Positions 10,124 through 29,043 of a stretch of DNA of 64,000 bases are shown piece after piece; the first letter of the stretch is position 1; every line of letters begins with the position of its first letter. Source of the stretch: a virus (lineage: Duplodnaviria; Caudoviricetes); IMG/VR virus record IMGVR_UViG_3300031555_004294, positions 235,071-299,070 of that record. The stretch is one strand, 5' to 3'. The notes below the pieces were generated by a model. That model was not told the DNA's origin, did no database searches, and saw nothing but the letters and a program-made list of their open reading frames with translations. A program made the translations under genes and the position numbers.

Positions 10124-10328
10124 AACTTTTATAATTCTTCTGGAGGAATTAAAAATGAGATGTCCTAAATGTAATGGTGAAGTATTACTTACTGCAACTG
10201 CAACTGATAGTACAGGTGAAGACATTATTCTTCAGTATCATTGCGATTCTTGTAAGACAGAGTTAATAGAAAAAGATATTTTAGATTTGGATGGAACAAA
10301 TTATGACTTAGATGGAATTTTAAGTTGA
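10116..10328 (+). CDS. Small zinc-ribbon protein
   Basis: CPKC...CDSC; probable start MRCPKC behind GGAGG. Confidence 0.55.
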   Translation: MVKTFIILLEELKMRCPKCNGEVLLTATATDSTGEDIILQYHCDSCKTELIEKDILDLDGTNYDLDGILS

Positions 10329-10335
10329 TGGAAAT

Positions 10336-10746
10336 AATTAATCAGAGAAGTTGATGGTATCAGAGTAAAATAATGAATCATGAAATATAAAATAGTATCA
10401 AAATTGTATAATGAATCAATAATCTAGACAGTATCAATAATAGAAATGAATCATTCGAACAAATAGTATCACGTTGGTGTAATGAATCAAATGAACTTAT
10501 AGTATCAACATACAGAAATGAATCAGAACAAGAAATAGTATCAGGAATACACAATGAATCAATGATATTAATGTAGTATCAACCCATCTAAATGAATCAT
10601 TGTTGTCTACAGTATCATATATAAAAAATGAATCAACATGGTCAAATGGTATCACTTTCAATTAATGAATCAAATAAAGAAATAGTATCAAATACTTATA
10701 ATGAATCACGATCACCAATACAATAGTGTCAGAGCGTTTCAATGAA
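10336..10746 (+). ncRNA. TIGR-like dual-repeat guide array 1 (11 units, orphan)
   Basis: Alternating AATGAATCA and ANAGTATCA repeats with mostly 9-nt variable spacers (range 8-14), period about 36 nt; ends at a terminator. Confidence 0.85.
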
Positions 10747-10750
10747 AAAA

Positions 10751-10789
10751 AAGAATATACCCACCAAAGGATATATTCTTTTTTTTTTG
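10751..10789 (+). terminator. Bidirectional terminator closing array 1
   Basis: AAGAATATA/TATATTCTT stem with A run before and T run after. Confidence 0.75.
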
Positions 10790-10824: not shown

Positions 10825-12666
10825 CTATCGTTCATATTTGTAATCATAATTTCCACAATCCCAAATTCGACAATACTTAGTTTTGTCCATTATCTGGAAC
10901 TCAGTTAAGTTATCATCGTAAATCTCTGGAAATAATTTCTTTAGTTTATGCTTCTGAAAATTAAACCTAGTTTCTCTAGTAACAAAGTCTGTATAAGAAT
11001 AACCAGGTTTACTAATATCATCTAGAACAAATCCAGTTGATTCATATAATCCACCTTTAGACCATCTTCTATCAGCATATGTTATAATACTCTTCCATTC
11101 ATAATTCTCTTTAAAGTATCCAAATAACTTATCAAATGCTCCATAGACTTGAAATTCTATATCAGTAGCAAATCTAGAAAGTTCATAGTCATACTTTCCC
11201 TTTTTTGTAAATCTAGGTTTACAAAATGTCATAACTGCAACTAATCTATTTTCTTCATCGTTTATAGGATACCATAATCCAAGCTTTACATTAGCTTTAT
11301 CTTCACCTTGAATGTGATTTTCATTTAGGAATTGATTCTTATCTGAAGCATTAAGCTCAGCTATAAAGCATTTAGATGCTCTAATTTTAGGTAGTTCTTT
11401 AGAACAGCCTAAAATGTGTTTTAACTTAGACTTGACTATATCTTGCTTAAAGTTCCATTCATCTTCAAAAACATGTATTAATTGTATACCTTTCTGTTTA
11501 CAAGCAATGGTTTTGTTTAAGTGATAGTTTTTATCTGATAACATTTTCTCACTATGCCAATACAAACCATCAAATTCGATTGCTATATTTTTCTCTGGTA
11601 GGTAAATATCTAACTCTTTTCCATTTAAAATTGTACGATCATTTTCTATAATCGTTCCAGTGTAAAATGATTTGATAAATTCGATGATTTCTTTTTCATC
11701 GTCACTGTAACCCTTTATCTTAGAACATTTAGGACAACGATGCATTCTTGATGTAAAATGATGAGGAAGTACTGGATAATCATGTCCACAGGTATTATGC
11801 ATCATCTTAATAGAGACGCTTGCATTTACATATTTTCCAAGAACAGTATATTCATCACCTACTAGATCATAGACTTGCTTTTCAAATTGTTCTTGGGTGA
11901 ATGTTCTCTCTACTAGTCTACAATCCTTACAACGAACTCCTTGTTTAAATGAATGGGGAGTAATGTAATCAAGATCCTTTCCACATGTATTATGTCTCAT
12001 TGCTATTAGAGTGTCTGTATTAACATACTCGCCTAGCACAGTGTACTCGTCACCTACTAGAGCATAGACATCTTTCTTAAATCTTTCAGTTGTATAAGCT
12101 CCACATATCTTACATCTAACTCCACCAGTTATAAATGCATGAGGAGTTGTAGGAAAAGTTTCTCCACAAACAGAATGTAACATTTCAACTGGTTCGTTAT
12201 ATTTAGTAAACGGAGTTACTGGTAGGTACTCTCCACCAACCAAGTCATACACTTTTTGCTTAAACTTTTCATCCTTCTCCTTTGCTAAACATGTCTTACA
12301 ACGTTGCTGTCCTTTTTTAAATCTAGCTGGTATGATTGGATAAATTTCTCCGCACTTATGTTTTATATCGAGTTCTGTATTGTTATTTACATAGGTTCCT
12401 AAAACTGTATAGTCAGTTCCAACTAATTTGTACACTTCTTTCTTAAATGTTTCTGTAGTTCCTTTAAGGTTACCAAAACATACTGGACATCTTGTATTAT
12501 CTTTAAAATGTGCTGGTGTAATATACCACTCATCATAACCACAAACGTTATGTTTCATTCGTATCTTTGTCTTATCATTTGCATATTCACCTAGAACAGT
12601 ATATTCATCACCAACTAAACTTTCTACTAAAGCCTTGTACTCTTCAGTATTAGATCTTGGCCACAT
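10825..12666 (-). CDS. Putative homing endonuclease: repeated H..CG...CxxC zinc modules, a DUF559/Vsr-like nuclease domain and a Hef-like C-terminus
   Basis: Five repeats of (VY.LVG.EYTVLG.Y...H..CG...C..C); ELDIYLPEKNIAIEFDGLYWH; YELSRF, TYADRRWSKG, RIWDCG. Confidence 0.7.
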   Translation of the reverse strand: MWPRSNTEEYKALVESLVGDEYTVLGEYANDKTKIRMKHNVCGYDEWYITPAHFKDNTRCPVCFGNLKGTTETFKKEVYKLVGTDYTVLGTYVNNNTELDIKHKCGEIYPIIPARFKKGQQRCKTCLAKEKDEKFKQKVYDLVGGEYLPVTPFTKYNEPVEMLHSVCGETFPTTPHAFITGGVRCKICGAYTTERFKKDVYALVGDEYTVLGEYVNTDTLIAMRHNTCGKDLDYITPHSFKQGVRCKDCRLVERTFTQEQFEKQVYDLVGDEYTVLGKYVNASVSIKMMHNTCGHDYPVLPHHFTSRMHRCPKCSKIKGYSDDEKEIIEFIKSFYTGTIIENDRTILNGKELDIYLPEKNIAIEFDGLYWHSEKMLSDKNYHLNKTIACKQKGIQLIHVFEDEWNFKQDIVKSKLKHILGCSKELPKIRASKCFIAELNASDKNQFLNENHIQGEDKANVKLGLWYPINDEENRLVAVMTFCKPRFTKKGKYDYELSRFATDIEFQVYGAFDKLFGYFKENYEWKSIITYADRRWSKGGLYESTGFVLDDISKPGYSYTDFVTRETRFNFQKHKLKKLFPEIYDDNLTEFQIMDKTKYCRIWDCGNYDYKYER

Positions 12667-17115: not shown

Positions 17116-17626
17116 AGAAAATCAATGTAATCGACAGTATCAATATTTGAAAATGAATCACTAGAAGAGATAGTAACATAACTTATGAATGAATCAATAT
17201 GTAAGACAGTATCAGACATATGCTAATGAATCAATACTAATTACAGTAACAGTCACCACTAATGAATCACATCGGGTAACAGTATCAAATAAATATAATG
17301 AATCAAATAACTTGAAAGTATCAATTGTAGCTAATGAATCAGTGCACATTAATAATATCACAGCGGTAATAAATGAACCATAATTGCGGATAGTAACAGA
17401 AGGAAATAGTGAATCAATGTCAGGGAACAGTATCAAGAGGTGAAAAATGAGTCAGCGAGAATGACAGTATCATATGACAGCAACGAATCAATATATTAAA
17501 CTCGTATCTTTTGTTCAAATGAATCATTCATACGGACAGTATCATGCTAAATCAATGAATCATGGATGAAAATAGTATCAGTGACTTATAATGAGTCAAG
17601 ATAAAAAACTCGTATCATTACAAATA
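17116..17626 (+). ncRNA. TIGR-like dual-repeat guide array 2 (14 units, orphan)
   Basis: AATGAATCA-9nt-ACAGTATCA-9nt periodicity, e.g. aatgaatca atatgtaag acagtatca gacatatgct; some repeat variants (aatgagtca, atagtaaca). Confidence 0.85.
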
Positions 17627-17635
17627 AACAATAAG

Positions 17636-17678
17636 AAATGACTAAATGAGATTTACTCTCATTTAGTCATTTTTTTTT
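17636..17678 (+). terminator. Terminator closing array 2
   Basis: AAATGACTAAATGAG/CTCATTTAGTCATTT stem followed by a T run. Confidence 0.8.
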
Positions 17679-26108: not shown

Positions 26109-27284
26109 TTAGATATTGCTTGCAGCCATCGTCTTCTTATTAGTATCAAAGAAGAGATCCATGTAGTCATCATACTTTGTAAAAGTATCGTGGATCTTTT
26201 TATAGTTCACACCGATATTCTTAAGTACGCCTACCATGATATCCTTGGGAAGTACTCTACATACTTCAATGAAACGCTTACAAAGCTTATCTCCAGTCTT
26301 CTTATCATTGAAGTCCTTAAGATTCTCATCGATATAACGAATACATCTGTCAATGATAACGAACTGTCTTGTAGAAGTATCACCCTTAATCTTGGAAAGA
26401 ATATCACGCTCAAACTTCTCATCTGTGCTTTGGAAGATTTCTTTCACAGTAGTAATGGGATTCTTCTTGTTTCTGAGAAAACTAGTCAGAGAAGTTGCAG
26501 GAGTCTGACCTACTACACCCTTTGCTGCTTCAAACAACATACCTTCAAAGTTCTCAGGATAGTAGGTCTTGATCTGTCTCATTACCTTTGAGAGCAATTC
26601 CCAACCACGAGGAGTAGGTTTAACCTCTTCCTTACTATGGGGGTCATGAAGAAGATTAGGCATTTCTGCAATGAATTCGATGATGTCAGTATCGATAGCT
26701 TCAGAACCAGTTTCAGGATCATCCTTAGTATTAGATGCCCACTTAAGCCAGTCCTTGACATCTGCTTCAAGTGTATACTTTACAAAACGATTCTTCATAG
26801 CGTCATTCATGACGTTAACCTGATAATCATTGTCATCATCATATTCAGGGTTTCCTGCTGCAATGACAATACAACCTTCAGGGAGAATAGTTTCGTTGAT
26901 TCGTCTATCGAGAATTAACTGCATCAATTCTTGGTTTACAGCATTCTCGCATCTATTCAACTCGTCGATAAAGAGAATCGTGTTTATACCCTTCTTATCG
27001 TTCTCCAAGATCTGATTGAGTTTTACATGCGTAGTATAGTCATTAACCATTCTACCCGATTCATCATCTTTTCTTGGTACGGGAATGCCACCCAATTCTC
27101 CTTCCTTCAAGAGTGCACCGAAAAGTGTGACAACAGGGACATCATCAAAGCCATTTTCCTTATAAAGCTTTGCTACTTCCTTGATCATCTGTGACTTTCC
27201 TACGCCAGCATGTCCTTCGATATAAGGTACAACACCTGCTACACTTGTTACGAATACCTGTGGCAATAATTCCGAATACTTCAT
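26109..27284 (-). CDS. MoxR-like AAA+ ATPase
   Basis: Walker A GHAGVGKS, Walker B LFIDELNR, AAGNP, NRF, PTPRGW; start re-called to MKYSELL behind AAAAGGAG. Confidence 0.88.
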   Translation of the reverse strand: MKYSELLPQVFVTSVAGVVPYIEGHAGVGKSQMIKEVAKLYKENGFDDVPVVTLFGALLKEGELGGIPVPRKDDESGRMVNDYTTHVKLNQILENDKKGINTILFIDELNRCENAVNQELMQLILDRRINETILPEGCIVIAAGNPEYDDDNDYQVNVMNDAMKNRFVKYTLEADVKDWLKWASNTKDDPETGSEAIDTDIIEFIAEMPNLLHDPHSKEEVKPTPRGWELLSKVMRQIKTYYPENFEGMLFEAAKGVVGQTPATSLTSFLRNKKNPITTVKEIFQSTDEKFERDILSKIKGDTSTRQFVIIDRCIRYIDENLKDFNDKKTGDKLCKRFIEVCRVLPKDIMVGVLKNIGVNYKKIHDTFTKYDDYMDLFFDTNKKTMAASNI

Positions 27285-27410
27285 TTTCTGTTTATCTCCT
27301 TTTTGTATTAAAGTTTTACTAAGTAAAAATATATAGTTATAAACGTTTTTAGTGTTTATAACTATATATCTCTCCAACAGTTTTAAATTCTGTCGTAAAT
27401 TTGGTCATTA

Positions 27411-27927
27411 AGACTCAACTAAAAGTTGTTACTATTTGAAAGTTTTGATTCATTTTTTGGACGTGATACTATAAACGTCGATGATTCATTACAGGCAAGT
27501 GATACTGTTCTTATTATTGATTCATTTGACAGCTGTGATGCTATAAGGAACAATGATTCATTAAACTGCTTTGATACTATTAGGCATCGTGATTCATTAA
27601 AGAATAGTGATACTATTTAGCAACGTGATTCATTATAAAATATTGATACTATCATTGAAATTGATTCATTAATTGAAAGTGATGCTATTTTGACCATGTT
27701 GATTCATTGCGCGTTACTGATACTATTCGCTGTTAGTGATTCATTACACAACCATGGATACTAATTGTTAGACTGATTCATTCACTACATATGCTACTGT
27801 CAATTATACTGATTCATTTTTGCTTCATGATACTATTGTCGCTATTGATTCATTAAACCCAGATGATACTATAAATTACTCTGATTCATTTTTCCACGAT
27901 GATACTATAAAGTTCCAATGATTTCAC
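27411..27927 (-). ncRNA. TIGR-like dual-repeat guide array 3 (14 units), directly downstream of the Tas-like gene
   Basis: Plus strand shows TGATTCATT and TGATACTAT alternating with 9-11 nt spacers, i.e. the same repeats as arrays 1 and 2 on the minus strand. Confidence 0.9.
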
Positions 27928-27993: not shown

Positions 27994-29043
27994 TCAGAAG
28001 CTATCTCTGCCAGGCTTCAAACCAAGGATTTCCTTATGAGGAGGCTCAATGATATGAACATGCCCAAGATGTACTTCGGCAAAAGGACGAGGAGCAGGTC
28101 TACCATTTGCATATTCATACCAAACAGTAAACAAATGAGATAGGAAGATCTTTTCTGCATATCTCTTAGCCATTGAAATCATATGTGCCATGGGTAACTT
28201 ACCACTCTCATAAGTTTTCTTAGCTTCAGTTTCTTTTTCAAAGTTCTTCTCTTTCAATGTAAGAGCTGCCAACTCTGTAAAGCCACCTCTCTCATTTCTT
28301 TCAATGTATTCCTTAAGCTTTTCTCTGTAGAGATGTCCATAGATTGCATCGGGAATTCTATCAATAGGATTTCCATTCTCATCAAGAAGAATATTACCGT
28401 CACTGTCCTTCTTATATCCAGATACCTTGGCAAACTGTTCTCCAGCTTTCCAGCAAAGTACCTTAAAGTGAGGGTTATAGTCAAGCTTTACTCCCTTCTT
28501 ACGGGGTGCTCTATGACCTTCAATACCGCCATATCTCCAAATGGAACCTGCAGTTTGACACTTAGAAATGTCGATATAAGAAAGGAAACCTGCTGCAAGC
28601 ACAGGTCCAATTCCCTTTACAGTAAGAAGCCACTTTCCAATGGGGTCTCTCTTAACATAGTCTTCCAGCCAAGATGCAATTACTTCCTCGATGTCCTTAA
28701 GACCTGCCTTTGCATATGCAAACGAAATATTGTTGGTTGCTTCATTTTCCTTTACAGTGCTTTCAATTTCCTTATCACTTTCATCTTTACTGTCCAACTG
28801 GAACTGTCTGTTGCCAGCACCAATTCTAAAATCCTGAATATCATAATACATTCTGATTGCACTGGTTGCTTCTTCTCTGGAAGTGATAGGATTACTCTTA
28901 ACAATGATCCTACCAAATCCTCTTTCGTAAGTATCTTGGAAACTTACCTTTTGCTTCTTGTTGTTTTCCGTGGGGTTTGCTGCAGAGATGGTGTCCATTA
29001 CTTCATTCTCTGCCTGTTCATTAGTGCTCTTCTTTCTAGCCAT
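27994..29043 (-). CDS. Nop-domain / IS110-related RNA-binding protein, TasA-like (no RuvC or HNH domain seen)
   Basis: Coiled-coil IRMYYDIQDFRIGAGNR, then WLLTVKGIGPVLAAGFLSYIDI...AGSIWRYGG and HMISMAKRYAEKIFLSHL (IS110-Cterm/Nop fold); start MARKKS behind AAAGGAG; adjacent 36-nt array. Confidence 0.8.
   Translation of the reverse strand: MARKKSTNEQAENEVMDTISAANPTENNKKQKVSFQDTYERGFGRIIVKSNPITSREEATSAIRMYYDIQDFRIGAGNRQFQLDSKDESDKEIESTVKENEATNNISFAYAKAGLKDIEEVIASWLEDYVKRDPIGKWLLTVKGIGPVLAAGFLSYIDISKCQTAGSIWRYGGIEGHRAPRKKGVKLDYNPHFKVLCWKAGEQFAKVSGYKKDSDGNILLDENGNPIDRIPDAIYGHLYREKLKEYIERNERGGFTELAALTLKEKNFEKETEAKKTYESGKLPMAHMISMAKRYAEKIFLSHLFTVWYEYANGRPAPRPFAEVHLGHVHIIEPPHKEILGLKPGRDSF

Follow-up and report, generated by a model that had tools for sequence, protein, structure and literature searches.

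How TIGR arrays gain their spacers is, together with their natural targets, stated as unknown by the group that discovered TIGR–Tas systems (PMC12045711; bioRxiv 10.64898/2026.09.09.750476). A locus in a giant gut/rumen phage and its relatives bear on this question through observations that can be checked. The DNA analysed here (the window) comprises the final 64 kb of an IMG/VR phage record 299 kb in length, and it contains one pair of spacers twice, in two arrays that lie far apart. An earlier reading of the letters (the original prediction) had pointed out this pair and had taken it as a selected unit that moved between arrays or was acquired twice. We asked how one guide came to be present in two distant arrays of one phage.

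The sequence AATGAATCA, the edge repeat, occurs 33 times in the window against 2.7 expected, in three blocks where it alternates with a second repeat, AyAGTATCA (the loop repeat), at a period of 36 nt. Variable stretches of 9 nt separate the alternating edge and loop repeats of the three blocks; this length was found for 302 of 381 parsed A spacers and for 298 of 337 parsed B spacers. These units match the 36-nt two-repeat form of Faure 2025 (PMC12045711). As read from its sequence, the system is a dual-repeat TIGR–TasA system with one Tas gene, three arrays and about 40 predicted 36-nt guide RNAs (tigRNAs), each with two 9-nt spacers (Table 1). TasA-type systems such as this are a known kind, the family having been described in 2025. 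A CRISPR–Cas identity was considered and is ruled out by the two kinds of 9-nt repeat, the 9-nt spacers and the absence of any Cas family nearby; a domain search of the genes neighbouring the arrays found none.

The Tas gene ends 67 nt upstream of array 3. In a profile search its product scored 149 bits against NCBIfam NF052498 (TIGR_Tas_endo; cut-off 100), and phmmer matched it to 9mty (3.8e-12) and TasH (3.6e-7), while a Pfam search of the protein returned no domain. A fold predicted from the single sequence was of no use (pLDDT 37), and we relied instead on an AlphaFold2 model built from an alignment of 51 sequences (pLDDT 86), for which Foldseek ranked TasH and TasR best and IS110-family recombinases next. 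In the model, residues 1–34 are disordered, residues 41–131 are helical and beta-rich domains are absent; the first ~130 residues hold neither His nor Cys, the earliest of these lying at about residue 160 or later. On the modelled structure, the protein is of the TasA subtype, with no HNH or RuvC domain predicted N-terminal to the coiled coil and the Nop domain.

Table 1. Features of the TIGR–Tas locus, numbered from the first nucleotide of the window
Feature	Position	Strand	Description
Small Zn-ribbon gene	10155–10328	+	ends 7 nt before array 1
TIGR array 1	10336–10746	+	11 units; starts 7 nt past the Zn-ribbon gene stop codon, no leader; last edge repeat truncated
Shared tigRNA unit, copy 1	10627–10663	+	unit 9 of 11 of array 1; AATGAATCA-ACATGGTCAA-ATGGTATCA-CTTTCAATT
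Hairpin with A-run and T-run	10745–10789	.	between array 1 and the convergent endonuclease gene; putative two-way terminator
Hef-like homing endonuclease gene (hef613)	10825–12666	-	613 aa; convergent on array 1
TIGR array 2	about 17116–17672	+	about 15 units; positional counterpart of the second array in relative G001
MoxR-type AAA+ gene	26109–27284	-	downstream of array 3; marks the other rearrangement junction
Inverted repeat	27329–27369	-	between array 3 and MoxR
TIGR array 3	27409–27926	-	14 units; immediately follows the Tas gene
Shared tigRNA unit, copy 2	27671–27708	-	unit 7 of 14 of array 3, truncated first unit counted; AATGAATCA-ACATGGTCAAA-ATAGCATCA-CTTTCAATT
Tas gene	27994–29043	-	349 aa (P0001), TasA type; disordered N-terminus, coiled coil, Nop domain; without nuclease domain

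The arrays stand in different operon contexts, array 1 following the gyrA operon and array 3 following Tas. In array 3 the first edge repeat is truncated and the last one degenerate; no terminator follows it, and the next gene is MoxR. The hairpin beyond array 1 is visible in the sequence and absent from the output of the consensus scan. No unit of array 2 is found in array 1 or array 3. Part of the inverted repeat between array 3 and MoxR (TTATAACTATA) is kept in the spacer between the Zn-ribbon and MoxR genes of the relative G001, and the region is therefore probably the promoter region of the MoxR operon. The 613-aa endonuclease has five N-terminal repeats of ~60 residues, with Cys pairs in each, and a C-terminal part that resembles the Hef-like homing endonucleases known from AR9/PBS1 and from Campylobacter phages. 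G001 has this protein as well; a related contig in which Tas, an array and HU are adjacent lacks it.

The two copies of the shared unit have spacer A, ACATGGTCA(A), and spacer B, CTTTCAATT, in common. They are identical over two tracts, one of 20 nt that runs from the edge repeat through spacer A, and one of 23 nt that runs from the ATCA of the loop repeat through spacer B into the next edge repeat plus one base. They differ solely in the 4–5-nt core of the loop repeat (ATGGTATCA in copy 1, ATAGCATCA with one extra A in copy 2), by two substitutions and a 1-nt change in an A-run. Spacer A is over-long in both copies (10 and 11 nt, versus the usual 9 nt), and the adjoining units are unrelated on both sides. 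The spacer pair thus lies at the coordinates and has the sequences that the original prediction gave, with both spacers exact, and comparison of the units bears out its description of kept spacers, a diverged inner repeat and differing neighbours. We also considered a wider paralogy of arrays 1 and 3 and rejected it, the flanking units and the 4–5-nt spacer prefixes that they share being at chance level by our estimate.

It is extremely improbable that the match reflects chance or an assembly artefact. Taking 0.283 as the probability of a match per site, one expects 6e-8 exact 18/18 matches from 452 cross-array pairs of units, and letter shuffles of 412 family units gave a mean of 0.02 pairs with at most four mismatches between different arrays of one genome. 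Array 3 recurs unchanged in the JGI contigs L148, L149 and L150, and array 1 in L152; these contigs come from other samples, have unique flanks on both sides and cover both junctions of the window. Because separate assemblies with unique flanks reproduce the arrays base for base, misassembly is excluded. The same contigs belong to the same strain (99.95–100% identity) and carry no information on the age of the duplication. Rumen/gut metagenomes in which the strain occurs are JGI 3300018878, 3300024272, 3300023371, 3300032167 and 3300029705 and ENA ERZ27248370. The shuffling and assembly checks that the original prediction had named thus leave neither chance nor artefact as an explanation of the double match.

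To place the pair among other arrays, we compared it with related phages. A pattern scan for both repeats found 22 stretches on 13 viral contigs, whose Tas proteins are 29–63% identical to that of the window, and protein searches added short contigs with Tas proteins 72, 76 and 86% identical. The relatives were parsed into 30 arrays with 475 units, of which 412 comparable units entered the pair counts. Two units were called related at no more than 4 mismatches in 18 spacer positions, with the expectation taken from shuffles. Eight related pairs lie within the same array (0.1 expected), one joins different arrays of one genome (0.02 expected) and three join different genomes (0.66 expected). 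The single cross-array pair is the one described here, and it is the only match among 5042 cross-array unit pairs within single genomes. The all-against-all comparison that had been proposed thus returned eight pairs within arrays for one between arrays of a genome.

The same-array pairs come from block or single-unit duplications. A 40-unit array (L014:5022–6189, identical to L024; G003) holds two collinear blocks of 87% identity about 16 units apart, which differ by point changes, small indels and one exact indel of a whole 36-nt unit. Within these blocks, divergence is much greater in some unit pairs than in the adjoining ones, as would result from the replacement of single units inside the duplicated block. 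Elsewhere in the family, repeated units lie at distances of 3, 7 and 10 units, one of them an exact duplicate 3 units apart. Across 12 within-array paralogue pairs, differences per site amount to 0.19 for spacer A and 0.174 for spacer B, against 0.093 for the loop repeat and 0.037 for the edge repeat; site for site, spacers therefore change at about twice the rate of loops.

Relatives whose Tas proteins are 72–86% identical show a complete turnover of spacer content. The Tas-adjacent arrays of the three closest non-identical relatives have no unit in common with the window phage, and where the Tas gene retains 81% DNA identity, collinear units are at random similarity (5/18 positions); spacer replacement is therefore much faster than divergence of the adjoining gene. 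In L162, the closest non-identical relative (Tas 86% identical in amino acids), collinear units are at random identity with those of the window (5/18). One L162 unit that resembles the shared guide was considered and set aside (p = 0.25 after correction for all comparisons).

Only one relative, the 320-kb G001, has flanks that can be aligned with those of the window; it is the nearest syntenic relative, with a Tas protein 63% identical (tblastn) and neighbouring proteins 40–90% identical. Its gene order is DUF4314, Tas, a 13-unit array, the convergent hef613, HU, an RNA polymerase fragment and dCMP deaminase, beyond which lie two small genes, a second array and a homologue of a 229-aa gene. 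At another place in G001, gyrA, a 137-aa gene and the Zn-ribbon gene stand in a row, and MoxR with its operon comes only 95 nt further on, leaving no array between. In the window, by comparison, the Zn-ribbon gene leads into array 1 and the endonuclease, and Tas leads into array 3 and MoxR. On these gene orders, the window and G001 differ by an exchange of the regions downstream of two points; one predicted exchange point is at or within the Tas-adjacent array, and the second lies in the interval from the Zn-ribbon gene to MoxR. The two genomes are at least two rearrangements apart, at least one of them a further inversion. In a second relative contig, Tas is followed by a 280-nt gap and then by HU on the opposite strand; in a third, Tas is followed by an array and then by a convergent gene. 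In both of these contigs a convergent gene, not MoxR, lies beyond the Tas-adjacent array. The gyrA and MoxR homologues of G001 (G001:C1:146310–150119 and 151422–153778; L155–L158) are each interrupted by an insertion of about 1.2–1.3 kb that is absent from the window genes and that may be an intron or intein.

Arrays 1 and 3 look like the two halves of one former array, because Tas, array and endonuclease are contiguous in G001 and no array follows the Zn-ribbon gene there. Array 1 has a terminator but no leader, and array 3 has the truncated start on its Tas side but no terminator; joined, arrays 3 and 1 would form one canonical-like array of about 25 units in which the two copies would stand 16 units apart. 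We therefore propose, with roughly even confidence, that the shared guide is a within-array duplicate that was later separated by an inversion. One guide would have been duplicated by slippage or by unequal recombination between 9-nt edge repeats while the Tas-proximal array 3 and the Tas-distal array 1 still formed a single array of about 25 units. A rearrangement that broke the DNA once within that array and once in the interval from the Zn-ribbon gene to MoxR would then have inverted roughly 17 kb and left the copies in separate, oppositely oriented arrays. The shared unit is interior to both arrays and does not lie at the proposed breakpoint, so the rearrangement itself would not have created the copy; as there are no related neighbours at the 16-unit offset, either only one unit was copied or only one survived. 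The order of these events would be as given, and their direction, a split rather than a fusion or loss in G001, we infer only from three relatives that lack the Tas–array–MoxR order. The arrays of G001 have no units in common with the window, and the ancestral array can therefore not be reconstructed from them.

Other origins have to be weighed against a duplication followed by a split. A unit could have been copied between arrays that were already separate, by ectopic gene conversion or template switching with the 9-nt edge repeats as microhomology. The bounds of the identical stretch, an edge repeat on one side and the next edge repeat plus 1 nt on the other, with unrelated units beyond, would fit such a transfer, as would the whole-unit indels bounded by edge repeats that occur in relatives. 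Isolated related units are, moreover, common to otherwise unrelated arrays of different phages (G001/G002, c9108/c3690 and G002/G003), and account for the three pairs found between genomes against 0.66 expected. We nevertheless regard a transfer as less likely, though a serious alternative: the pair is a single match in 5042 cross-array pairs within genomes, a simple recent copy would keep its loop repeat unchanged whereas the loops differ at three positions, and the synteny with G001 already connects arrays 1 and 3.

Some acquisition process could instead have captured the same A+B target twice, each unit being built on the local loop repeat, which would give identical spacers around different loops. 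Both loop variants are rare in the family and each recurs once more in its own array (ATGGTATCA in 2 of 381 units, both in array 1; ATAGCATCA in 3 of 381, two of them in array 3), and the complete turnover of spacers between relatives implies that some replacement process exists. When we examined array-specific loop variants as a sign of local templating, however, permutations within genomes gave no significant result (p = 0.18 in the window phage and 0.12 over all genomes). Adaptation machinery is unknown for TIGR systems (PMC12045711; bioRxiv 10.64898/2026.09.09.750476), no source sequence was found for the shared spacers, and the over-long spacer A of both copies (10 and 11 nt) points to common descent; we consider a double capture very unlikely. 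Taken together, duplication and a split of the array explain the pair better than mobility or double capture. The movement of single units, or their repeated acquisition, that the original prediction had put forward is not needed, since G001 places both positions in one Tas-adjacent array and within-array duplication is the common mode in the parsed family arrays.

Whatever the origin of the pair, the sequence of its guide may have been constrained. Three loop differences with none in 18 spacer positions are unusual for a neutral duplicate, a point against the proposed history. The loop variants sit at positions that seldom vary among related arrays: 5 of 381 units have G at loop position 3, and 12 of 381 have C at position 5. 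At the paralogue rates, three independent changes would all land in the loop with a probability of about 0.009, and two events with one of 0.044. These values are no more than suggestive of constraint on the guide. A reading that is compatible with any origin is that the duplication is old, that its spacers are under purifying selection and that both copies are kept because two transcription units have to supply the guide, whether for dosage or for expression both early and late. Paralogue spacers vary more than loops and yet these spacers are unchanged (p about 0.009–0.044), and the two arrays lie in different operon contexts (the gyrA operon versus Tas), as this reading would have it. Against it, the case is a single pair that was found through its matching spacers and so carries an ascertainment bias, the three loop changes lie within 5 nt and may be one or two events, no target came out above chance and no relative examined carries the guide. 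We hold selection on both copies to be a doubtful possibility, in which both would still be in use. The earlier view of the A+B pair as the selected unit stands insofar as spacer A and spacer B of a TIGR array form, by definition, one functional guide (Faure 2025, PMC12045711); its selective part is weakly supported (p about 0.01–0.04).

Searches for the guide outside the window gave no further copy. A scan of viral contigs for the edge repeat with spacer A found six matches, every one within coding DNA and outside any array; no match came from a metagenome scan with the complete shared unit and a free loop, and the 30 related arrays held no unit within 2 mismatches of either shared spacer. 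For the target, on which the two spacers of a TIGR guide would each bind one of the opposite strands, both spacer orders were searched, the published cut position fitting one strand order and the published 3′ overhang the other. Spacer A, a gap of 0–3 nt and the reverse complement of spacer B matched viral contigs seven times (five independent sequences, in unrelated genes), and the opposite order not at all. In 596 Gb of prokaryotic genomes, the A-first order gave 102 matches in unrelated phyla with no preferred gap (30, 15, 12 and 45 at gaps of 0, 1, 2 and 3, with about 17 expected per gap class under uniform composition), which we judged to be chance. The best matches of 34 window guides to the 299-kb phage genome equalled those of two control arrangements in either spacer order, as did those of 412 family guides. 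The target search that had been proposed with this spacer pair thus gave nothing above chance in phage and prokaryotic genomes; a 2026 preprint reports that 18-nt guides give many false positives. In three related viral contigs from different samples (L040, L043 and L044), ACATGGTCA-CG-AATTGAAAG occurs in a conserved gene, a count that fits chance. Repression of transcription has been shown for other TasA proteins (bioRxiv 10.64898/2026.09.09.750476). With the host identified, it would be reasonable to begin a search for targets with the two-copy guide.

[quoted passage not shown] Unlike them, it has three arrays over 18 kb, two of which are remote from Tas, one guide that is present twice and a Tas-adjacent array without a terminator. 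The nucleases TasH and TasR (PDB 9w04 and 9mty) are the best structural and sequence matches of the window Tas, over the coiled coil and Nop domain, but have the HNH or RuvC domain that it lacks. The likeness to CRISPR arrays with duplicated spacers lies in variable guides between conserved repeats and in the duplication and deletion of units by repeat recombination; in contrast to CRISPR, the window arrays have two kinds of 9-nt repeat and two spacers per guide, no cas1 or cas2 and no leader-end polarity, and whereas CRISPR spacers come from a known acquisition machine, none is known for TIGR. Clustered box C/D snoRNA genes expand by tandem duplication followed by divergence of the guides. 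They share with the present arrays a Nop-domain partner, two guide regions per RNA and local duplication, and differ in that TIGR targets DNA, not rRNA methylation sites, and in that TIGR units are much shorter and lack K-turn stems; clustered snoRNA arrays are cited in PMC12045711.

Taken alone, the duplicated unit is a minor point about a known system; it is of value for the family-wide picture of change in TIGR arrays. The observations are duplication of blocks and of single units, gain and loss of whole units exactly at edge repeats, an array apparently split by rearrangement, full replacement of spacers at 81% Tas DNA identity and occasional isolated guides common to unrelated arrays; the 2026 TIGRFinder preprint does not mention duplicated units. 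As a modest clue to how arrays gain spacers, the pair is useful for what it says of array dynamics; what it indicates is duplication and rearrangement rather than an acquisition step of the CRISPR kind. A broader proposal, which we rate as quite unlikely, is that TIGR arrays renew themselves without an acquisition machine: units would be cassettes that are duplicated, deleted and exchanged at edge repeats, within and between arrays and perhaps between co-infecting phages, with selection keeping a few important guides in more than one transcription unit. If so, most guides would turn over quickly while a few, such as the duplicated one, would persist in several transcription units. More speculatively, copying by way of an RNA intermediate may be the reason why the copied unit equals a mature tigRNA in size.

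Among the guides common to otherwise unrelated arrays, one is nearly identical in G002 (L011:7014–7050) and G001 (L021:822–858), in arrays that overlap in no other unit and whose flanks cannot be aligned. Its spacer A is xCTTGAATTx and its spacer B TTGAATGGG; TTGAAT lies in both spacers, and the predicted target would therefore be palindromic (TTGAAT ... ATTCAA). The most over-represented spacer 6-mers of the family are TTGAAT (8 against 1.8 expected) and TTTCAA (6 against 1.3), a weak signal. At the last position, both spacers avoid C (6–7%) and favour G (37–41%) across the family. In the lineage of contig c3690 (L025, arrays at locus 1265–2355), nearly all spacers have a final G, whichever of the two repeats follows, which makes the repeats there effectively 10 nt long; the loop repeat reads AAAGTAyCA in most units.
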